Shown here: positions 4,911-49,224 of the stretch, piece by piece | Numbering within the stretch: position 1 is the first letter of the stretch | Layout of the letters: every line of letters starts with the position of its first letter | Position numbers and translations under genes: made by a program | The notes under the pieces: model-generated | Database searches by the model: none | What the model was told of the DNA's origin: nothing | The model's input: the letters and a program-made list of their open reading frames with translations, nothing else | Assembly (NCBI GenBank): GCA_041940205.1 | Contig: JBGTSP010000001.1 | Span: 245-64,244, forward strand | Reading direction: 5' to 3' | Source of the DNA: Alphaproteobacteria bacterium | GTDB taxonomy: Bacteria > Pseudomonadota > Alphaproteobacteria > GCA-2731375 | Length of the DNA stretch: 64,000 nt

Positions 4911-5798
4911 CTACTGGGCGGCCAGCGGCAGGCCCAGGTCGAGCGCGATCACCGTGTCGATCACCCGGGTCGCGTCCGCCACCACCAGGTCGAAGTCCGA
5001 GCGTTTCCTATAGCGGGTCTCTTCCATGTAGATCGCCCGGTTGATCTCGATCTGCAGGCTGTGCAGGCCCTCGCGCGGCTGGCCGTAATGGTAGGTCGAG
5101 AACCCGCCGGCATAGGGCACGTTGCGGGCCACCCGGTAGCCCAGCTGTCGCCAGGTCTGTTCGACCGCGTCGATCAGTTCTTCCGCGCAGGTGGTGCCGA
5201 AGCGGTTACCCAGCACGATGTCGGCGCGGCCGTCCGGCTCGTCCCGGCCGTTGGGCAGCGGCCGCGAGGGCATGGAATGGCAATCGATCAGCACGGCATG
5301 GCCGAACACCGTCATCGCCCGGTTGAGCAGGCCCCGGAGGGCACCGTGATAGGGCCGGTATAGCCCGCGAATCCGCGCCTCGGCCTCGGCCACGCGCAGC
5401 TTTCGCCGGTAGATCTCGAAGCCGTCGCCGACCAGCCGCGGCACCGTGCCCAGGCCGGCCGCGACCCGCAGCGAGGTCGTGTTGGCGTAGGCCGGCAGCC
5501 GGTCGGCGAACATCGCCGGATCGAGTTCGTAGGGTTCGCGATTGACGTCGAGCCAGATCCGCGCGTGCGTGGCCGAAAGCAGCGGCACGCCAAGCGCGGG
5601 CGCGGCGGCGAAGATCTCGTCGACGAAACTGTCCTCGGCCCGGCGCAGCTGGTCGCGCTTCAGGCGGCTGTCGCGGAACAGGGTGTCGGGATAGTGCTGG
5701 CCGGAATGCGGCGAGGCGAACACCGCCGGCGCCCGCAGATGCGCCGGCTCGCGCACCGTGAACGCCTCGGTTGCCGTTGCCTCGGGGCCTTCCGCCAT
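4911..5798 (-). CDS. N-formylglutamate amidohydrolase family protein
   Basis: Conserved FASPHSG...HARIWLDVNREPYELDP motif; start trimmed to internal Met (MAEGPE) from the longer ORF 4911..5912. Confidence 0.7.
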   Translation of the reverse strand: MAEGPEATATEAFTVREPAHLRAPAVFASPHSGQHYPDTLFRDSRLKRDQLRRAEDSFVDEIFAAAPALGVPLLSATHARIWLDVNREPYELDPAMFADRLPAYANTTSLRVAAGLGTVPRLVGDGFEIYRRKLRVAEAEARIRGLYRPYHGALRGLLNRAMTVFGHAVLIDCHSMPSRPLPNGRDEPDGRADIVLGNRFGTTCAEELIDAVEQTWRQLGYRVARNVPYAGGFSTYHYGQPREGLHSLQIEINRAIYMEETRYRKRSDFDLVVADATRVIDTVIALDLGLPLAAQ

Positions 5799-6019
5799 GC
5801 GCTGTCGATCCCTTTCCGTCGATCCCGGTTGACCGCGATGGTGCGCGGCGCGGCCCCCCGCGTCAATCGGCGGCGTCCCGCCGCGGCCGGGCCGATATGG
5901 CGAACAAGGCATTAACGATTTGAAAGAAACCGGCCACTATAGTTCCACTCTCCGGACGCGAAGGGCGGCCCGGGAACGGGATCGCCGGCGGCGAACCGGC
6001 GGCAGCGAGCGGGAGAACG

Positions 6020-6379
6020 ATGGCGCATATCCTTCTGGCCGAAGACGACGATTCGATGCGGAATTTCCTGCGCCGCGCGCTCGAACGCGCGGGCCACGTG
6101 GTGTTCGCCGTGGGCAGCGGCGCCGACGCCCTGCCGCTGCTGGCCGAGGGCGACTTCGACCTGCTGCTGGCGGACATCGTGATGCCGGAAATGGACGGAA
6201 TCGAGCTGGCGCGCCGCGCCGTCGCCGTCGACGCCGGCCTGCGGGTCATGTTCATCACCGGTTTCGCCGCGGTCGCGCTGGCCGGGCGGCACGCGGCGCC
6301 GCGCGACGCCCGCGTGCTCTCCAAGCCCTTCCACCTGCGCGAGCTGGTGGGCGAGATCGACCGGCTTCTGGCCGCCTGA
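6020..6379 (+). CDS. cpdR: Single-domain CheY-like response regulator, CpdR-like (ClpXP adaptor type)
   Basis: 119 aa; near-colinear with Caulobacter CpdR (ILLAEDDDSMR...LLLADIVMPEMDGIELARRA...VMFITGFAAVAL...RVLSKPFHLRELV). Confidence 0.65.
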   Translation: MAHILLAEDDDSMRNFLRRALERAGHVVFAVGSGADALPLLAEGDFDLLLADIVMPEMDGIELARRAVAVDAGLRVMFITGFAAVALAGRHAAPRDARVLSKPFHLRELVGEIDRLLAA

Positions 6380-6395
6380 AGGCGGAACCGCCGCT

Positions 6396-6983
6396 TCAGG
6401 ATCCCGTGTGCGCGAAGGCCTCGGCCGGGACGTAGTCGAACACTTCCTCGCCCGGTTTCTGCCAGTAGAGTTCCAGCGTGTTGGTGCCCTTGCGCTGGAA
6501 GTACAGCAGGTAGAGCGGGTACCAGCCGGGCGTCTCGACCTTCACGTGGGCATATTCCGAATAGCGGTCCTTGTGCACGTCGGGATCGTCGGCGATCACC
6601 TGCTCGCCGACGGTCAGCCGGATGCCGTCGTTGGAATTCATGGTCATGACGTAGGTGCCGGCCTGGGGAAACCTGAGGAAACCGGTGATGCGCGCCGCCA
6701 CGCCCTCGGTGTAGCTGCTGGTCAGCACTTCCTGGTCGCTGTTCGGCCAGTCGAGCGCCTCGATCGGCTCGCCACGCTTGCCCTTGCCCGCGATCTCGAT
6801 CTCGTCGACATGGCGGATGAAGATGTTGAGATATTCCACCGCCAATCCGGGCTTCAGCGTTTCGGCCGCCGGTTGCGGCGAGGCGGGCTTCAGGCCGCTG
6901 ACTTCAACCACGGCATGAGCCGGCGTCACCGCCAGCCCGAGCATCAGCCCCATCGCGGCCGCAAGGCCGGTCCATCGCATCAT
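6396..6983 (-). CDS. Secreted protein, PA14-like beta-sandwich domain (putative)
   Basis: Signal peptide MMRWTGLAAAMGLMLGLAVTPAHA then about 170 aa beta-rich domain; start trimmed to MMRW. Confidence 0.4.
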   Translation of the reverse strand: MMRWTGLAAAMGLMLGLAVTPAHAVVEVSGLKPASPQPAAETLKPGLAVEYLNIFIRHVDEIEIAGKGKRGEPIEALDWPNSDQEVLTSSYTEGVAARITGFLRFPQAGTYVMTMNSNDGIRLTVGEQVIADDPDVHKDRYSEYAHVKVETPGWYPLYLLYFQRKGTNTLELYWQKPGEEVFDYVPAEAFAHTGS

Positions 6984-7123
6984 CCGGGTCTCCCTTCTGG
7001 TACTGCGCATTCGCGTCGTTGTGCCCCGGGGCCGGACCTTAACGCGGACCGGCGACATTGGTGAGAAAAGTTGTAGGCGCTTGCTTGCCCCCGCGCCGCG
7101 ATTCGCCTATATCGGCGCGCTCC

Positions 7124-7200
7124 GGGTCCGTAGCTCAGTTGGTTAGAGCGCTGTCTTGACATGGCAGAGGTCACTGGTTCAAATCCAGTCGGACCCACCA
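7124..7200 (+). tRNA. tRNA-Val, anticodon GAC
   Basis: Cloverleaf folds by hand: acceptor GGGTCCG/CGGACCC, D-arm AGCTCAGTTGGTTAGAGC, anticodon stem CTGTC/GGCAG with loop TTGACAT, T-loop TTCAAAT, 3' CCA encoded. Confidence 0.9.
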
Positions 7201-7207
7201 CGTTTTT
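7152..7207 (+). repeat. attL: prophage attachment-site core (3' part of tRNA-Val plus about 8 nt)
   Basis: 56-bp stretch tgtcttgacatggcagaggtcactggttcaaatccagtcggacccaccacgttttt repeated at 47107-47162. Confidence 0.8.
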
Positions 7208-7280
7208 TCCCTGAATTCCGCCCTTTTCGACGCCTCGGTCGGTGGCTATGACACTGACTTGTGGGTCAAATCGTGGTTCA

Positions 7281-8420
7281 TCAGCCCTCGAGCGCGGCCG
7301 CGGCCGAGCGCAGGTAATCCGGGTGGTGGTGGCCATAGACCCGCTCGACCAGGCGGGTGTCGCGATGGCCGAGAAAGCCGGCGACGTCCCACAGGTTGAC
7401 GCCGCGCTGAGCCATCCAGGTCGCGGCCGTGTGGCGCAGCACGTGCGGCGAGACGCCCTCGAGGCCGGCCGCCGCGGCCGCACCGCGGATCCCCGTCTTG
7501 ACGTCCCGGATCGGCCGGCCGGCATACTCGATCACGTGATCGCTGATCGCGCCGCGCAGGGCTTCCTCGAGATGCCGGCGGGCGGTGTCCGTCATCGGCA
7601 CCAGCGACCGTCGCTTCGCGCCGAGGCGTCGCACCGGCGGCTGCAAGTCGATCCGGCCGGCCGTGAAGTCCACGCGGTCCCAGGTCAGCTCCAGCAGGGC
7701 TTCCTTGCGCGCGGCCGTGTGCAACGCCAGCACGATGAACAGCCGGACATGCGGGCTGCGGGCGGCCGCGACCAGGCGATCGGCCTCCTCGCGGGTGAGC
7801 CAGCGATCACGCGCCGCCGACTCGGGCGGGAGCTGCAGGGGGTCGACCCGGTCGTACAAGGGCGTGCCGTCGGGGTTCCTGAGAGCGCCTCCCAGGGCGA
7901 TCGCGGCGTTCAGGGTGGCGAGCTCCTTCCGGATGCTGCCATCGGCTCTGCCGATGCGCCTGCGGGCCGCCAGGTAAGCATCGCCGCGCTCGGGGGTGAC
8001 CTGGGTCGGCCGCAGGGCCGCGAAGGTTTTCTCGAGCGCACGGAAGGCATAGTCGATCCGCTGCACGGCCCGGATCGGCTGCTCGCGTCGCCGGCGGACA
8101 AGGGTCAGCAGCGCGAGGGCGCGGTCCGTGCGCGCGCTGCCGTAGACCTTGCGCATGTCGGCGGTCACGGTCTCGACCTGGCCGGGGTCGCGGCCGGCCA
8201 GCGAGCGCTCGAGGCGGTAGAGGGCGATCAGCTCTCCGACGGTGGGGACGGGCGCCTGATCTGCCTGAAGGTCGGAAACTGCGTCACAGAATTCGGCGAA
8301 CCGCCGTTCGGCTTCCTCCCTGGCGGCGGCGTCGACGCCGAGGCTTCGGCGGACGGTGCGTCCTTCGACGGTGTCGGTGGCGCACCAGGCGCCGCGGTAG
8401 AGCTTGAGCCGCCAGGCCAT
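7281..8420 (-). CDS. int: Phage tyrosine integrase
   Basis: 379 aa; C-terminal catalytic region HVLRHTAATWMAQRGVNLWDVAGFLGHRDTRLVERVYGH; adjacent to tRNA/attL. Confidence 0.9.
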   Translation of the reverse strand: MAWRLKLYRGAWCATDTVEGRTVRRSLGVDAAAREEAERRFAEFCDAVSDLQADQAPVPTVGELIALYRLERSLAGRDPGQVETVTADMRKVYGSARTDRALALLTLVRRRREQPIRAVQRIDYAFRALEKTFAALRPTQVTPERGDAYLAARRRIGRADGSIRKELATLNAAIALGGALRNPDGTPLYDRVDPLQLPPESAARDRWLTREEADRLVAAARSPHVRLFIVLALHTAARKEALLELTWDRVDFTAGRIDLQPPVRRLGAKRRSLVPMTDTARRHLEEALRGAISDHVIEYAGRPIRDVKTGIRGAAAAAGLEGVSPHVLRHTAATWMAQRGVNLWDVAGFLGHRDTRLVERVYGHHHPDYLRSAAAALEG

Positions 8421-8677
8421 CCTTCCCTCTCCTCGCTGTCGGGCGCCGGATCGGCCGGCGCGGTTTTCTCCGCGCGGTCCTCGCGCGCGGTCCCGGCGGC
8501 CGCCAGACCATCCTCGTACTCGGCGACGGCCTCGACCGGGATCCGGATCATCCGACCGATCGTGAAGTGCCGCAACGTGCCCGCCCGGCAGCGGGCCAGC
8601 ACGGCGGATTTCGAGCAGGCCCAGCGCTCGGCGAGCAGCTCCGGGGTATAGGGGCGAGGCGGGAGGGCCATGGTCAT
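8228..8677 (-). CDS. xis: Excisionase / AlpA-like HTH DNA-binding protein (putative xis)
   Basis: N-terminal HTH LLAERWACSKSAVLARCRAGTLRHFTIGRMIRI; directly upstream of int; low-complexity C-terminal tail overlaps int 5' end by about 190 bp, so its true extent is uncertain. Confidence 0.5.
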   Translation of the reverse strand: MTMALPPRPYTPELLAERWACSKSAVLARCRAGTLRHFTIGRMIRIPVEAVAEYEDGLAAAGTAREDRAEKTAPADPAPDSEEREGWPGGSSSTAAPGAPPTPSKDAPSAEASASTPPPGRKPNGGSPNSVTQFPTFRQIRRPSPPSES

Positions 8678-9930
8678 GATTTCAGGCGAACGGCGTTCGT
8701 CGGGAACGCGTCGTGCAGGACGCCATCAAGCAGCCGTCCGGCCGCTCTCTTGCCGACCCGCTGGAAAGTCGCGTGGCTCTCGTCACTGGCGACAAAGGAC
8801 AGGCCGTCCTCCCATCTTGGATCGGCGTCGAAGTCCGCGGGGAACAGGTTGTGCTTGTCCTCGACGCGGCCGTTCTGGCTCTTCCAGTAGGGGGCGGCAT
8901 CCGGCTCCCACGGCAGCCACTCGCCGATCTGTTTCAGCAGAAACGGGATTCCGGCGCTGGCGCACTGGTCGCGAATCCCGCGCGGCCAGTCGGGATGCAT
9001 CGGCCGGGCGTTGCGCCCGCTCTCGCCGCCGGCGACGACCCAATGCAGGCCTTTGCCCGGTGCCTTGCGGAAGGTGCGGCAATCGCACTCGTGGCAGCTT
9101 TGCGACACCCCGCCTGTGTTCGGGCAGCGGGTAAAGCCGTGACCGTGGCCGCACTGGCAACCGGCCGGATAGCCCGCACGCACCCCTAGCAGATAGCGGT
9201 GCATGTCCACCGGCCCCAGCAACGGCTCAGCCGAAATCCAGCGAACGGATGCCGGCGTCGCCAGCAGTTCGGGGATGCGCAGATCGGCCGTCTTCTGATC
9301 CTCGACCGACGTGCCGAGCCAGACGTTCGGGAGCGGCCAGTCCCAGCCCATCGCCTTGCACCGACCGGCCTCGGTCCAGAGCTTTTCGTTTGAAGGATCG
9401 GCAAGACCAAACGCATCGAGGAAAGGCTCACAGGCCTCCTCAATACGGACCCGGCGGCCCGTCTCTTTGCCGGCGGGAATGTGAATGCGGCAGACTTCAC
9501 GGGCCGGCGTCCCCTGCCACTTTTCCTCAAACCATGAGCGCATCCGTTCCGGCCGTTTCGTCAGCACCTGGAACGTGTGCTGCGGACAGAGCGCCATCAT
9601 CGCGAAGATCCGGTCGATCCACTCGTCCTCGACCCAATCGCCGAAAAGGTCGGTCATCGAACACACGAAAACCCTCCGGGGCCGGCGCCAGCGAAGCGGC
9701 TGGGTGAGCGCCTTCTCGTCGAGGAACAGGTCCACCTTGGCCCTGTCCTGGGCGGCGAAGCGGATCGGGTTCTGGAAGCGCGCCTGCCAGTCCTCGGAGT
9801 AGCAGTTCCGACAGGCCTCGGACGCGTGAACGCAGTAGTGACCTACTTTGCCGGTTGCGCGGTTGCGTGCTCGGAGTGGGTTCCAGGTGGCGTCCGTCCA
9901 TTCGATCTTCGATCGTTCAGCCATCGGCAT
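8674..9930 (-). CDS. Phage Gp37/Gp68-family protein (DUF5131, radical-SAM-related) with C-terminal extension
   Basis: Signature N-terminus MAERSKIEWTDATWNPLRA, Cys cluster CVHASEACRNC, later CQCGHGHGF...CHECDC; start trimmed to MPMAERS (RBS-less internal Met of ORF 8674..10182). ATGA overlap with xis. Confidence 0.7.
   Translation of the reverse strand: MPMAERSKIEWTDATWNPLRARNRATGKVGHYCVHASEACRNCYSEDWQARFQNPIRFAAQDRAKVDLFLDEKALTQPLRWRRPRRVFVCSMTDLFGDWVEDEWIDRIFAMMALCPQHTFQVLTKRPERMRSWFEEKWQGTPAREVCRIHIPAGKETGRRVRIEEACEPFLDAFGLADPSNEKLWTEAGRCKAMGWDWPLPNVWLGTSVEDQKTADLRIPELLATPASVRWISAEPLLGPVDMHRYLLGVRAGYPAGCQCGHGHGFTRCPNTGGVSQSCHECDCRTFRKAPGKGLHWVVAGGESGRNARPMHPDWPRGIRDQCASAGIPFLLKQIGEWLPWEPDAAPYWKSQNGRVEDKHNLFPADFDADPRWEDGLSFVASDESHATFQRVGKRAAGRLLDGVLHDAFPTNAVRLKS
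8686..8700. repeat. GC palindrome family copy 1 (gGCGAACGGCGTTCGt)
   Basis: Perfect 13-bp core CGAACGGCGTTCG; 9 bp upstream of xis start / just past Gp37-like stop. Confidence 0.6.
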
Positions 9931-44368: not shown

Positions 44369-44574
44369 TCGAGAAGATTCCCCGCCCACGAGTTCCCGAG
44401 AAGCATGCCGGTACGGCCGCCGGCGTGATCACCACTGCCATCTTCGCCGCTCTCGACTGGCTCACCGATCTGCCGCCGGCGCCACCCGAGCTGGTCGGCT
44501 CGACCGTCGTCATCACCAGCTGGGCGGTGGGATGGCTGCGGGCCTGGTGGCGCAAAAGGACCCACTACCGATGA
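44365..44574 (+). CDS. Small hypothetical protein (69 aa)
   Basis: ATGA-coupled between membrane protein and endolysin. Confidence 0.3.
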   Translation: MIEKIPRPRVPEKHAGTAAGVITTAIFAALDWLTDLPPAPPELVGSTVVITSWAVGWLRAWWRKRTHYR

Positions 44575-45077
44575 ACGCTGCAATCGATGCCCTCGAGGCC
44601 CGCCGGGCCCTAGATCCCCACCGACGTCTCTCGAAGAACTTCACCCTGCGCGAGGCCATGCGCAGCCAGCTCGCACTGCGCCACGGGATCGACAACTGCC
44701 CCTCGGCCGAGCTGGTGCCGGCGCTCGAGGCCGTGGCCGCACACGTGTTGCAGCCGGTGCGGGACTTCTACGCCCGGCCCTTCACACCCTCGAGCTGGTA
44801 CCGGTGTCTCGACCTCAATCGCCGCCTCGGCAGCCGCGACAGCAGCCAGCACGTGCGCGGCCAGGCGGTGGATTTCGAGGTGCCGGGGATCTCAAACGTT
44901 GAGGTCGCCATGTGGTGTCGCGACCGTCTCGAGACCTTCGACCAGCTGATCCTCGAGTTCCACACGCCCGGCGATGCGACGAGCGGCTGGGTGCACTGCA
45001 GCTGGGTGAGCCCGGCCGACAACCGCGGCGAGGTTCTCACCATCTCGGCGAACGGCGTTCGCCGGGGATTGCCCTGA
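44571..45077 (+). CDS. Endolysin, peptidase M15 (zinc D-Ala-D-Ala carboxypeptidase-like) family
   Basis: Zn-binding motifs SQHVRGQAVDF and ...LILEFH plus D; start trimmed to MNAAIDAL. Confidence 0.75.
   Translation: MNAAIDALEARRALDPHRRLSKNFTLREAMRSQLALRHGIDNCPSAELVPALEAVAAHVLQPVRDFYARPFTPSSWYRCLDLNRRLGSRDSSQHVRGQAVDFEVPGISNVEVAMWCRDRLETFDQLILEFHTPGDATSGWVHCSWVSPADNRGEVLTISANGVRRGLP
45047..45063. repeat. GC palindrome family copy 10 GGCGAACGGCGTTCGCC
   Basis: Perfect 17-bp palindrome 15 bp before endolysin stop. Confidence 0.6.
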
Positions 45078-45090
45078 AGGAGACAACAGC

Positions 45091-45679
45091 GATGGACCAG
45101 GTCCTGCAATTCCTCGCGAAGGCCTCGCCGGTCATCGGAACGGCCCTGGGCGGTCCCGTCGGCGGACTCATCGGCTCCGGTGTGCGGGTGGCGGCGGAGA
45201 TGCTGACGGGTGAAAGCGAGCCCGAGGCCGTGATCGCCAACCTCACCGGCAACCCGGAGCTGCTCGCGCAGCTCGAGGAGAAGTCGATCGAGCTGGAGCG
45301 CACGAGGCTGATCGAGGAGACGAAGCGGCTGCAGTCGGTGAACGAGACCATGCGGGCCGAGACGCAGTCCGAGGATCCCTATGTCCGCCGGTGGCGGCCG
45401 ACCTGGGGCTACGTGACCTGCCTGGTCTGGGGGGCCCAAGGTCTGGCGCTGGCCTGGGTGATCGGTGACGCTCCGGAGAAGGCGCCGGCGGTGATCTCCG
45501 CGATGGCGGCCATGACCGGTATCTGGGCGATCGCTCTGGCGGTGCTGGGTGTGAGCATCTGGAAGCGTTCGGACGACAAGAAGGTGAAGGCCGGCCTGGT
45601 GGCCGGTACCGGAGGTGGCCTCGGGGAGGTGATCGGCCAGATCATCGGCAGGAAAGCGGGACTGCAGCCGCCAGGCTAA
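45091..45679 (+). CDS. Holin, 3-TM GTA-release type (putative)
   Basis: Gly-rich N-terminus LGGPVGGLIGSG, central helix, then RRWRPTWGYV followed by hydrophobic helices; immediately after endolysin. Confidence 0.5.
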
Positions 45680-45879
45680 GGCGAACCGGGTTCGCGCCAT
45701 CGGATCACCCTGCTAGTATGGGTGTCGGGCGATTTGCTCGGCGCCTTCCTGGTCGGAGTTGATACCGTCAGGGGAGTATCCCTGTTCACCGGCTTAGAAA
45801 CGGGGTCAGGGATTCTCGACGCCGCGTGTATCGAATCCGCCCAACGACATTTCCCGGCGTCGGCCGGGATGGAGGATAG

Positions 45880-46530
45880 ATGTCACAGGATCGAGGCGGC
45901 ATCATCCGTGCCTTTAGCGAGGACCAGGTGTCCCGCCTTGCCGGCTTGTCCAAGGGGCAGTTGCGGGCCTGGGACCGACGGGGTTTCTTCAGGCCAGATT
46001 ACGCTCATGAAGACAGGCGACTGCCATACAGTCGCGTGTACTCGTTCAAGGACGTCGTCGGCCTGCGAGCGATCTCGATACTGCTGAAAGATCACCGTAT
46101 CGCGCTCGCCAAGTTGCGGAAGGTGGCCGACGAGCTCGAGAAGCGCGGCTTCGAGCATTGGGCGGACGTCAAGCTCTACATTCTCAAGCGAGAAGTACAC
46201 TTCAGGCCCCCGCAGTCGAAAGACGTGGAAGGCGTCTGGTCTGGGCAGCTCGCCATGCTCGAGGTGGTGGACGTGATCAACGACATCAGCGAGCGAGTGG
46301 ACGAGTTGCAGAAGCGCAAACCGGATCAGGTTGGACAGGTGGAGCGCCACCGGTTCGTTGCCCGCAATGCCGCCGTGATCTCCGGAACGCGCATTCCCAC
46401 ATCCGCAATCCGCCGGTATCACGAGGCGGGATACTCGACTGCCCGGATCCTCGCCGAGTATCCGTCACTGACGAAAGACGATGTTCGCGCTGCAATCGAA
46501 TTCGAGGAAAGACTGACACGCACCGCGTGA
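45880..46530 (+). CDS. MerR-type HTH fused to DUF433 domain (putative antitoxin/regulator)
   Basis: N-terminus IIRAFSEDQVSRLAGLSKGQLRAWDRRGFFRP (MerR HTH); C-terminus AAVISGTRIPTSAIRRYHEAGYSTARILAEYPSLTKDDVRAAIEF (DUF433). Confidence 0.7.
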   Translation: MSQDRGGIIRAFSEDQVSRLAGLSKGQLRAWDRRGFFRPDYAHEDRRLPYSRVYSFKDVVGLRAISILLKDHRIALAKLRKVADELEKRGFEHWADVKLYILKREVHFRPPQSKDVEGVWSGQLAMLEVVDVINDISERVDELQKRKPDQVGQVERHRFVARNAAVISGTRIPTSAIRRYHEAGYSTARILAEYPSLTKDDVRAAIEFEERLTRTA

Positions 46531-46549
46531 GTGTCCATAATCCCCGTCC

Positions 46550-46930
46550 ATGCGTTTCCTGTTGGACGAGAATGTCCCGCATCCGGTGATTCAGGTCCTG
46601 AAGGATCGCGGGCATACCGTAGACACGGTACTGGATCACACTGTTCCAGGAACACCAGATCCCGTCGTTGCCGCTCTTGTCGAGGAACTGGAGGCAGTCC
46701 TTGTCACGTTCGATGGCGATTTCGAGAAGGCAAGGAAGTTCAGCAGAAGCGAGCGGCGGCGCATGCAGCGTATCGACTGCATTCTTATGAGTTGCTTTGA
46801 GGGAATCGCTGCGTCACGTCTCTCGGAAACTCTTTCGCTGATCGAGTTCGAGTACAAGCAGGCCCAGGCGCAGGGCGGCCGCCAGGTCAGGGTCTGGCTT
46901 ATGAAGGAATACATCCGATTTCAGCGATAG
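46550..46930 (+). CDS. DUF5615 (PIN-like / Mut7-C RNase-like) protein, putative toxin partner of DUF433
   Basis: MRFLLDENVPHPVIQVLKDRGHTVDTV...VLVTFDGDF; 19 bp downstream of DUF433 gene. Confidence 0.7.
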   Translation: MRFLLDENVPHPVIQVLKDRGHTVDTVLDHTVPGTPDPVVAALVEELEAVLVTFDGDFEKARKFSRSERRRMQRIDCILMSCFEGIAASRLSETLSLIEFEYKQAQAQGGRQVRVWLMKEYIRFQR

Positions 46931-47106
46931 CAGGCCGCCGTTCGTTGCCATGCCACCGGCGAGCCGGTTTCCCACAGTTGAGCTATGACAGTGCTTACTG
47001 GTTCATATGAACCAGATCGCCATGAACAGGCGGGGAACATCGCCCGTCGAAGGCAGTAAACCGGCGATTTCGATCCCTGAAAAACCGCAGAAAACCGCCA
47101 GTTTCG

Positions 47107-47162
47107 TGTCTTGACATGGCAGAGGTCACTGGTTCAAATCCAGTCGGACCCACCACGTTTTT
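47107..47162 (+). repeat. attR: duplicated 3' end of tRNA-Val (no 5' half)
   Basis: Identical 56 bp to 7152-7207; no acceptor 5' arm upstream. Confidence 0.8.
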
Positions 47163-47225
47163 CCCGAAAATCCGCGACTTTCGAAAGCCGGCAAGAGACC
47201 GTCGCCGCGGTCGCCGCGCCTGCCT

Positions 47226-48041
47226 TCAGGCGCCCGCAGACCAGGCCAGCGGGAATTCCGGACCGCCCATCGGCGCGCCGTCCGCGAGGGCCGGATCACA
47301 AAGCGGCTTGCTGGTGCCCGGCCGGGCGCTGTAGCGCGCGTCGTCGCCGGTATAGCGCACGGTGTAGCCGCGCCGGCGCAGGTCGTGGCGCCGGTTGCCG
47401 CCGGCGCCGTGCACCACCATGGCCTGGAAGGCGATCACGTCTCCGGGCTGCATGTCCCAGGCGACGATGTCGTAATCCCCGCGGGCGGCCTCGATGTCGG
47501 GAATCGGCTCGTAGTCCGGATTCTGCTCGTAGCCCGAGGCCGTGGTCTCGCCGAAGGGTTCGGGCTGGAACCAGCGGTCCCAGCGATGGCTGCCGCGGAC
47601 GAACTCCAGGCGGCCGTTGTCCTCGCCGACCGGGTCGAGCGCCAGCCAGAACGAGGCGACCTGCCAGCCGCTCACCGGCCAGTAGGGCTGGTCGTTGTGC
47701 CAGCGCGTCCGGTTGGTCGTGCCCGGCTCCTTGACGAAGAGCTGGTCGTAGAGCAGCCGAACCTCCCGCGTGCCGGCGAACAGTTCGGCGGCCAGCGCGG
47801 GCAGGGGCGATTCGAGGCAGAACTCCCGGAACACCGGATCGTTCTGCCAGATCTTCAGGTTGCCGTGAAAGCGACCTTCGCCGTTCTGCGGCACGTAGGC
47901 ATGACAGAACGGGCCGGGCGCCGCGATGTCCCGCTCGATCGCCGCGGCCAGCCGCTCCAGCCAGTCCGCCGAGACGACGCCCGGCAGCAGGACCGCGCCG
48001 TCGCGGTCATAGGCCTCGCGCTGTTCGCTCGTCAGCCCCAT
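47226..48041 (-). CDS. Phytanoyl-CoA dioxygenase (PhyH) family Fe(II)/2OG oxygenase
   Basis: 271 aa; PhyH-type HxD...H pattern (RWHNDQPYW ... VHGAGGN). Confidence 0.7.
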   Translation of the reverse strand: MGLTSEQREAYDRDGAVLLPGVVSADWLERLAAAIERDIAAPGPFCHAYVPQNGEGRFHGNLKIWQNDPVFREFCLESPLPALAAELFAGTREVRLLYDQLFVKEPGTTNRTRWHNDQPYWPVSGWQVASFWLALDPVGEDNGRLEFVRGSHRWDRWFQPEPFGETTASGYEQNPDYEPIPDIEAARGDYDIVAWDMQPGDVIAFQAMVVHGAGGNRRHDLRRRGYTVRYTGDDARYSARPGTSKPLCDPALADGAPMGGPEFPLAWSAGA

Positions 48042-48133: not shown

Positions 48134-48598
48134 GTGAGCCTGACCATTGCCCCGGAAGATCCCGAGACGCCGGACCTCGCGGAACTGATCCGCACCCACC
48201 TGTTCGTGATGTCGGACCAGTCGCCGGAGGAGAGCGTGCATGCGCTCGACATTGCCGGCCTGCAGGCGCCGTCGGTGACGGTCTGGAGCGTGCGCGACGG
48301 TCCGGACCTGCTGGGCTGCGGCGCGCTGAAGCAGATCGGCCCCGATCACGGCGAGATCAAGTCGATGCACACCGCGGCGGCGCATCGCGGCCGGGGCGTC
48401 GCCCGGCGGCTGCTCGAACATCTCCTGGACGAAGCCCGCCGCCGCGGCTACGCGCGTCTCAGCCTCGAGACCGGTTCGATGGACAGTTTCCGCCCCGCGC
48501 GGGCGCTGTATGCGGGCTATGGCTTCACCGCCTGTCCCCCGTTTGCCGAGTATGGCGAGGATCCCAACAGCGTGTTCATGACCCTGCGGCTTGCATAG
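48134..48598 (+). CDS. GNAT-family N-acetyltransferase
   Basis: Acetyl-CoA motif HRGRGVARRLLEHLLDEARRRGYARLSLET; probable GTG start VSLTIAPEDPE. Confidence 0.7.
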   Translation: MSLTIAPEDPETPDLAELIRTHLFVMSDQSPEESVHALDIAGLQAPSVTVWSVRDGPDLLGCGALKQIGPDHGEIKSMHTAAAHRGRGVARRLLEHLLDEARRRGYARLSLETGSMDSFRPARALYAGYGFTACPPFAEYGEDPNSVFMTLRLA

Positions 48599-48738
48599 GG
48601 CCGCCTCTCCGGCTTTTCTCTCGCCCGGCAGCGTGTATGATTATTCGTATGGTTTGGAGAAAGACTTGGTGTGCGCCAATGTGTTCAATAAGACTCATAA
48701 AATTGGAGTTTTTTCATTTGCAATTGACATTGAATTAG

Positions 48739-49224
48739 ATGGAATTTGACGAAAATCTCCTTGCGAAGTCGACCGCAAACCTGCGCTCGCTCTATGCCTA
48801 CTGGAAGGAGTGTTGCGGCGATCGGCGCATGCCGAGTCGCCGGGATTTCGATCCGATGCACCTTCCCCGGCTGCTGCCGGGGGTCCTGCTGATCGATGTC
48901 GAGGCTCCCGACGAAAGCGGGCGTCCGGTCTTCCGCTACCGGGTGGTCGGCGGCTGGGAAGTCGATGCACGCGGCCACAATCCCACCGGCAAGACCGTCG
49001 ACGAGGGCTTTCACGGGGAATCGCTCGAATCCGCGCGACGGGACTACGAGACGGTCTGCCGCATGCGCGCACCGCTGTACGGGCCGCTCGATTTCGTCGA
49101 CCGGCGCGGCGTCCGCTTCTTCCAGGATTCGATCGTCCTGCCGCTGTCCGAGGACGGCGAGACCGTGAGCCAGATCCTGGTCTATTCCGAACGCCGCGAC
49201 TGGCAGGATTCAACGCTCTACTGA
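48739..49224 (+). CDS. PAS-domain protein (alphaproteobacterial single-PAS family)
   Basis: 161 aa preceded by AT-rich promoter-like region (TTGACATTGAAT). Confidence 0.55.
   Translation: MEFDENLLAKSTANLRSLYAYWKECCGDRRMPSRRDFDPMHLPRLLPGVLLIDVEAPDESGRPVFRYRVVGGWEVDARGHNPTGKTVDEGFHGESLESARRDYETVCRMRAPLYGPLDFVDRRGVRFFQDSIVLPLSEDGETVSQILVYSERRDWQDSTLY

Follow-up and report, generated by a model that had tools for sequence, protein, structure and literature searches.

The window analysed here, a 64,000-nucleotide (nt) stretch of the genome of an Alphaproteobacteria bacterium (contig JBGTSP010000001.1), contains a prophage whose attR end carries two small co-oriented genes, termed here A and B. 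They raise the question of what kind of system they encode and what it does at the end of a phage genome. The most convincing answer, which we regard as rather probable, is that A-B is a type II toxin-antitoxin cassette of the PIN-COG2442 (DUF433) class, with the winged-helix-fused architecture found in VapBC45. Gene A (45880-46530, + strand, 216 residues), the putative antitoxin and autoregulator, has a GGAGGA Shine-Dalgarno sequence with its ATG 4 nt downstream. Gene B (46550-46930, + strand, 126 residues), the putative toxin, is predicted to encode a PIN-like nuclease of the DUF5615/PIN_10 (Mut7-C) group. The spacer between them (46531-46549, + strand) is 19 nt long, lacks a Shine-Dalgarno sequence and includes the motif CATAAT. 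Upstream of A, a non-coding leader of 200 nt (45680-45879, + strand) starts after the holin stop codon at 45679, and is presumably the site of the cassette promoter and operator. The reading frames, the quoted peptides, the 19-nt spacing and the 200-nt gap are all as described in the initial annotation, and Pfam agrees with its domain assignments, namely a MerR-type helix-turn-helix (HTH) and a DUF433 domain in A and a DUF5615 domain in B.

Two genes with the domains of a PIN-COG2442 pair

Gene B is matched by the Pfam families DUF5615 (5.4e-14, 52.4 bits) and PIN_10 (2.1e-7, 31.4 bits, above the cut-off of 26.2). Because the first score exceeds the second, B more likely belongs to DUF5615/COG4634, the sister family of PIN_10, itself defined by Matelska et al. 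around the partner of VapB45/Rv2018 (PMC5499597). The acidic PIN-type residues that had been presumed are indeed present: the window copy has D6, E7, D37, D55, and D57, and an alignment of 67 full-length B sequences keeps D6, D37, D55, and D57 at 94, 100, 91, and 97%, respectively. The AlphaFold model of B, with a predicted local distance difference test score (pLDDT) of 91.6, displays a three-layer alpha/beta fold in which the acids lie at the C-terminal end of strand 1, at the start of helix 2 and just past strand 3. In this model, their placement is as expected for a PIN-type protein. A search for a specific solved structural relative of B found none.

Gene A is built of three parts: a CvkR-like winged helix of the MerR type (residues ~10-88), a stretch of beta strands followed by a helix (~89-150) and the DUF433 domain (~159-212). 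Pfam recognizes MerR_1 at residues 15-85 (2.1e-9) and DUF433 (PF04255) at residues 165-208 (2.8e-13), and many MerR structures match residues 10-85 by Foldseek and by profile search. In the AlphaFold model (pLDDT 77.6), residues 98-109 form beta strands and residues 132-144 a helix of 13 residues, after which comes the DUF433 helical bundle. A broad profile of the A family matches CvkR (PDB ID: 7xn2) with an E-value of 2.6e-10, its positions 9-142 aligning with chain residues 9-152, as well as the DUF433 structure 2ga1 (E-value 1.1e-8). As this profile finds CvkR and 2ga1, and not Rv2018, A is best described as a CvkR-like repressor module fused to DUF433, and its N-terminal ~140 residues are, by profile comparison, homologous to CvkR.

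This homology bears on how A might be regulated. CvkR is a MerR-type repressor whose dimers form via three beta strands, in place of the coiled coil of MerR, and its authors found no recognizable effector-binding site (PMC9938897). The AlphaFold model and the CvkR homology reveal neither a MerR coiled coil nor an effector domain in A, and in the profile search the region that would otherwise form the coiled coil shares homology with the domain by which CvkR dimerises through beta strands. The proposal of a ligand- or stress-responsive MerR protein is thus unsupported, since the N-terminal two thirds of A match CvkR. CvkR (Alr3614) resembles A in having a winged helix, a beta-strand dimerisation domain and a following helix without the coiled coil, and Foldseek aligns it with the A model at a template modelling score (TM-score) of 0.58 on the target. 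It differs from A in that it has neither DUF433 nor a PIN partner and controls cas12k and tnsB. The CvkR operator AnnACATnATGTnnT was not found upstream of A or of its relatives, and no genes of CRISPR-associated transposons (CAST) lie near A-B.

Pairs of this kind had been held to be undescribed and to lack experimental characterization. Yet PIN-COG2442 pairs were predicted as a toxin-antitoxin class by Makarova et al. in 2009, who also reported that winged-helix-COG2442 fusions, such as Rv2018, mostly go with PIN genes such as Rv2019 (PMC2701414). Two members have since been studied. In Synechocystis, Ning et al. (2013) found co-transcription of the PIN-COG2442 pair VapBC10, toxicity of its toxin and neutralization of that toxicity; they also saw the DUF433 antitoxin VapB10 bind its own promoter and undergo degradation by ClpXP2s (PMC3834315). 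Kim et al. (2016) found that Rv2019 brings E. coli and M. smegmatis growth to a halt, from which Rv2018 rescues them, and that it cleaves rRNA in vivo as well as in vitro, the latter requiring a divalent metal ion, with mRNAs as further apparent substrates (PMC5175181). In view of the 2009 prediction and of the work on VapBC10 and Rv2018/Rv2019, the class is neither undescribed nor untested.

VapBC45 (Rv2018/Rv2019) is the known system closest to A-B in architecture. Both are two-gene operons in which the antitoxin comes first and combines an N-terminal winged helix with a C-terminal DUF433/COG2442 domain, and in both the toxin or toxin candidate is small, PIN-like and of the Mut7-C group, with B scoring above the PIN_10 cut-off. 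The top Foldseek match of the A model in the PDB is Rv2018 (5af3; E-value 2.3e-4), aligned at full length; as the alignment covers 236 columns, the two share their domain order. However, no sequence similarity is detectable between A and Rv2018, Rv2019 is longer than B (138 against 126 residues) and the acids mutated in Rv2019 (D4/E41/D98) are spaced differently. VapBC45 is encoded on an actinobacterial chromosome, whereas A-B resides in a high-GC (guanine plus cytosine) bacterium that bears a prophage. VapBC10 (ssr2962/slr1767) and the other short cyanobacterial PIN-COG2442 pairs also have a DUF433 antitoxin upstream of a PIN-type toxin, but VapB10 is a single DUF433 domain of ~75 residues, to which A adds ~150 N-terminal residues. 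A last relative, likened here by description, is the COG4634 and DUF433 pair RHE_PA00163/RHE_PA00164 of the Rhizobium etli plasmid pRet42a, likewise found on a mobile element of an alphaproteobacterium and measurably affecting the behaviour of that element (PMC4294206). It differs from A-B by its location in a plasmid conjugation cluster and by a separate XRE regulator, and a MerR fusion is not reported for it.

The pair in other genomes

Full-length relatives of A number several hundred at 55-68% identity, and an exhaustive profile search delineates at least 255 clusters (50% identity) at E<=1e-30 and 725 at E<=1e-10. Eighty related loci (L numbers), one genome per species, were collected by searching with A. 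They belong mainly to Alphaproteobacteria, and also to Chloroflexota, Gemmatimonadota, Binataceae, Gemmataceae, and Blastocatellia. B directly follows A in all 80, being intact in 72 and truncated or frameshifted in eight, with a spacing of -4 to about +35 nt. The commonest values are 19, -4, 18, and -1 nt; a gap of 17-20 nt (mode 19) or an overlap of 1-4 nt recurs family-wide. The divergence of A and that of B are correlated across loci (r = 0.71). Such a pairing is far beyond chance. As judged from their sequences, the members (a CvkR-like winged helix-DUF433 protein followed by DUF5615) form a coherent, widespread subfamily of a known class, of which the window pair is a new member. The toxin-antitoxin-like character suggested in the initial annotation thus fits this strict linkage, the DUF433 type of the antitoxin and the conserved PIN-type acids.

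The surroundings of the cassette are diverse. In a Pfam census, 136 immediate neighbours fall into 114 families, mostly metabolic or housekeeping; in Rhodoplanes, for instance, A-B lies between glycolytic/Calvin-cycle genes and an inositol phosphatase gene. When the flanking open reading frames (ORFs) were clustered, no third gene recurred apart from antisense shadows, IS1595 transposases in 6-8 loci and one small divergent ORF. The latter, with the motif LKSGRLREFIAQEEARG, is found on the opposite strand just upstream of A in about seven loci (L014, L017/L018, L023, L027, L057, L064) and is absent from the window.

The cassette also retains its own base composition across hosts. Its GC content is lower than that of the flanks in 68 of 72 loci, by about 10 points (54% versus 64%; Wilcoxon p = 3e-13). 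In the window, the GC drop noted initially is real, the content falling from 0.67-0.71 to 0.54-0.63 across ~45550-47200 before returning to 0.70-0.74. Considering the 68 loci, this drop is a property of the A-B family and not of the prophage. A second sharp dip, to 0.51, occurs at 48550-48850 in the chromosomal flank, between an acetyltransferase gene and a PAS_5 gene.

In eight loci, B has decayed next to an intact A: it is truncated in L003, L051, and L066, and frameshifted or interrupted in L029, L032, L033, L041, and L047. What is left of it are the first 23-31 codons or a frameshifted sequence. In L003, the next ORF past the truncated B occupies 6751-7878, and an ORF for an IS1595-like transposase lies beyond it (7951-8919). 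Together with the strict linkage and the conserved catalytic acids, this decay fits a toxin.

The same comparison bears on a different reading, in which the main task of A is to repress mobile-element genes in the manner of CvkR and B is an accessory RNA-processing factor instead of a toxin that arrests growth, so that the pair would regulate its carrier (transfer, excision or lysis-lysogeny). The homology of A positions 9-142 to CvkR, a repressor of the transposition genes of a type V-K CAST (PMC9938897), speaks for it, as does the finding that mutating the COG4634 gene of the pair in the pRet42a transfer region raised conjugation ~10-fold (PMC4294206); a better conserved A would suit it too, and A is indeed above B in 87% of pairs, with mean identities of 44% and 37%. 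But in most genomes the cassette has only unrelated chromosomal genes around it and no nearby target of regulation, the CvkR-type motif was not found upstream, and linkage, acids and loss of B all suit a toxin. We consider a mainly regulatory role very doubtful.

Autoregulation of the cassette is plausible by analogy with the characterized pairs, and both the leader and the A-B junction offer candidate signals. The leader in the window holds inverted repeats at 45774-45784/45807-45817 and 45817-45824/45855-45862, and one with 7-nt arms (TCCCGGC gtcg GCCGGGA) that starts 28 nt upstream of the ATG of A. Inverted repeats whose arms measure 6 nt or more are present in 59% of the 80 leaders, against 31% of shuffles. 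At the DNA level, the leader shows no similarity to the leaders of related loci, and the other non-coding flanks are likewise without relatives. No terminator was detected by a scan of the 200-nt gap after the holin, and an Rfam scan of 45500-47400 gave nothing beyond sub-threshold noise. At the junction of several close relatives (L004, L005, L010, L014, L017, L020, L023), a hairpin that buries the AUG of B is predicted to form from the 18-20-nt spacer together with the last part of A and the first part of B (z = -2.6 to -6.6). The spacer itself is palindromic in a subset (e.g. L017 and L023), with the consensus CCATAATTATGG. The window carries a promoter-like CTGACA-17-CATAAT at 46513-46541.

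Several observations weigh against a toxin-antitoxin system, either in general or for the window copy. The TM-score between the A model and Rv2018 is only 0.33, and Rv2018 is absent from the A-family profile searches at both E<=1 and E<=10. The better conservation of A is the reverse of the usual toxin-antitoxin pattern, and the asymmetry of a decay affecting B only is biased, because the loci were collected with A as the query. A search of 79 leaders for a shared operator, covering the CvkR-type ACAT-N-ATGT and all 5-mer palindromes, gave no meaningful enrichment. In the window, no sigma-70-like promoter reaches the scan threshold in the 200-nt gap, and the junction does not fold (z = +0.6), lacking the hairpin of its relatives and keeping only the CATAAT. 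Finally, the family is known from sequence and predicted models.

Some of these points could also mean that the window copy is an inactive remnant carried along. The junction hairpin and palindrome of its closest relatives are missing from it, its promoter scan was empty and B has decayed in 8 of 80 related loci. Both frames are nonetheless intact and of full length, neither A nor B has lost any residue that is invariant or nearly so in its family, and A is preceded by a good Shine-Dalgarno sequence, which makes a dead copy highly improbable.

The prophage and the mobility of the cassette

The element that carries A-B in the window is a 40-kb prophage integrated at a tRNA-Val gene. The tRNA-Val gene (7124-7200, + strand) overlaps attL (7152-7207, + strand), composed of its last 49 nt and 7 nt of flank, and attR (47107-47162, + strand) is an exact 56-nt copy of attL containing the 3' part of tRNA-Val. 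A tyrosine integrase is encoded next to attL (7281-8420, - strand; Pfam Phage_integrase, 2.9e-22). Between the att sites lie ParB-like and D5-primase-like genes and those of a gpA-type large terminase, a lambda-type portal and a Mu gpT-like head protein. The lysis genes comprise an endolysin (44532-45077, + strand; Pfam Peptidase_M15_3) and a three-transmembrane holin (45092-45679, + strand; Pfam GTA_holin_3TM). The cargo position assigned to A-B at the attR end thus holds: the pair stands between the lysis genes and attR and is the final coding unit, 176 nt from attR. The same prophage is on record in the NCBI assembly GCA_041940885.1 and, across six samples, in a Logan assembly contig. The latter, 39,959 nt long, was considered as an excised phage genome and rejected: it corresponds to the unique portion of the prophage extended on either side by 30 nt of repeat, a length explained by a k=31 assembly break at the repeat, and is therefore no evidence of excision.

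A-B was also considered as a separate mini-island placed in tandem with the prophage. The interval from the holin to A contains no third att copy, the best local score there being 15, which is noise level, and no direct repeats other than attL and attR flank the pair within the window; the cassette therefore belongs inside the prophage. The non-coding stretch from B to attR (46931-47106) has features of its own: a perfect palindrome of 18 nt, CTGGTTCATATGAACCAG (46998-47015), and, overlapping it at 46985-47008, a degenerate copy of a portion of the att core (47116-47139) that retains 19 of 24 positions. The region formed by the two (46985-47015) is located 55-85 nt past B and ~90 nt short of attR, and may represent a recombinase site associated with attP or what is left of an old att. 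In viral sequences, the palindrome has a single match, probably fortuitous.

Carriage by a phage is exceptional for this family. No A-B was found in 50,697 phage genomes, the 2.9 million contigs of IMG/VR gave one partial match, and none of the 28 IMG/VR contigs with a related holin (29-46% identical) has A or B. Given this rarity in viruses, the prophage copy is best seen as a recent, atypical acquisition.

Outside phages, signs of mobility come from long direct repeats. In four genomes, A-B is the sole content between such repeats, in spans of 1.15-1.4 kb without a recombinase. In L036, the repeats (5777-5821 and 7156-7200) are 45 nt of the 3' end of a tRNA-Pro gene, 1379 nt apart; in L081, they are 29 nt of a tRNA-Tyr gene (5771-5799 and 7174-7202; 90% identical); in L038, ~43 nt of the 3' end of a gene (~5844-5886 and 7084-7126); and in L026, 20 nt (5888-5907 and 7038-7057). 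Among 740 shuffled controls, matches reached at most 14 nt. Moreover, a tRNA gene ends 170-210 nt before A, on the same strand, in four of the 60 loci scanned (L036, L037, L060, L081), where about 0.4 would be expected by our own estimate from typical tRNA density. In other genomes, no integrase was found near the cassette by jackhmmer with the integrase of the window, a weak test. The repeat-bracketed cassettes look like remnants of integrated elements stripped to A-B, or like mini-elements that are mobilisable in cis.

A separate observation concerns L074 (Roseivivax halodurans JCM 10272, NZ_JALZ01000021.1, 1-12609), in which 30 tRNA genes occupy one strand over 12.6 kb and A-B (5986-7004) lies mid-array, between tRNA-Trp and tRNA-Tyr. 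This array could hint at tRNA as the toxin substrate, or simply be a mobile tRNA island.

The bracketed cassettes invite a further idea, namely that the A-B unit of ~1.2-1.4 kb is mobile by itself, as a minimal element with no integrase of its own, or else is what obligatorily survives last when islands decay, and that it moves by means of borrowed tyrosine recombinases. A temperate phage may then have acquired the cassette next to attP, and the unusually conserved CvkR-like module of A might sense or regulate the carrier element beyond its own promoter. We consider this idea unlikely.

Role of the cassette

By analogy with the characterized pairs, we infer toxicity, RNase activity, neutralisation and autoregulation for A-B. 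B would be a small Mg2+/Mn2+-dependent PIN-like endoribonuclease of the Mut7-C/COG4634 group, whose acidic cluster (D6, D37, D55, D57) would cut cellular RNA and thereby stop growth. A would bind and neutralize B, most likely via DUF433, since the short antitoxins of the class are essentially DUF433 alone. It would dimerise by its CvkR-like beta-strand domain, and its MerR-type winged helix would repress the cassette promoter. B, having no ribosome-binding site of its own, would be translated by coupling to A. Upon loss of A, whether by proteolysis, by transcription shut-off or by loss of the DNA, B would be set free. As foreign, lower-GC cargo at the attR-proximal end of the prophage, the pair would mainly make the element hard to lose, and protection of the lysogen from other phages is a possible extra effect.

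Such addiction, or stabilization of the carrier, is the biological role that we favour, on account of the lone cassettes bracketed by repeats, the tRNA genes upstream of A and the decay restricted to B. A mainly anti-phage role by abortive infection would overlap with it, the sole difference being the selected function: an invading phage would remove, titrate or shut off A, and B would destroy RNA before the phage cycle ends. Carriage as prophage cargo in the attR-proximal slot and the foreign composition are compatible with this, many toxin-antitoxin systems have recently been shown to act against phages, as far as the general literature consulted goes, and Matelska et al. report a DUF433-PIN_10 pair within a restriction-modification/GmrSD island (PMC5499597). 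A few neighbours at other loci also match defence models, namely SspH, an AriA/PtuA-like ATPase, mad3/mad8 and a type IIG enzyme. On the other hand, B has no match in PADLOC-DB 2.0, where A has only a weak, HTH-level match to mad1 (2e-4), the census of neighbours is dominated by housekeeping functions and the pair is nearly missing from viruses. The role in defence or superinfection exclusion first proposed for the locus is consequently not supported by these data, and a primarily anti-phage function seems somewhat unlikely. As to the literature, "DUF433" in two defence papers proved to be DUF4338.

For the class as a whole, the cassette is a prophage-borne addition to systems so far tested only in a cyanobacterium and in M. 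tuberculosis, and it corrects the view of DUF433/DUF5615 pairs as uncharacterized. CvkR provides a concrete homology handle on the DNA-binding and dimerisation part of the antitoxin, and B is a predicted member of the Mut7-C-type PIN toxins, which apparently are still without a solved structure. The att-flanked mini-cassettes in the genomes that bear them (L036, L081, L038, and L026) could be natural evidence of toxin-antitoxin pairs outliving the islands that carried them.

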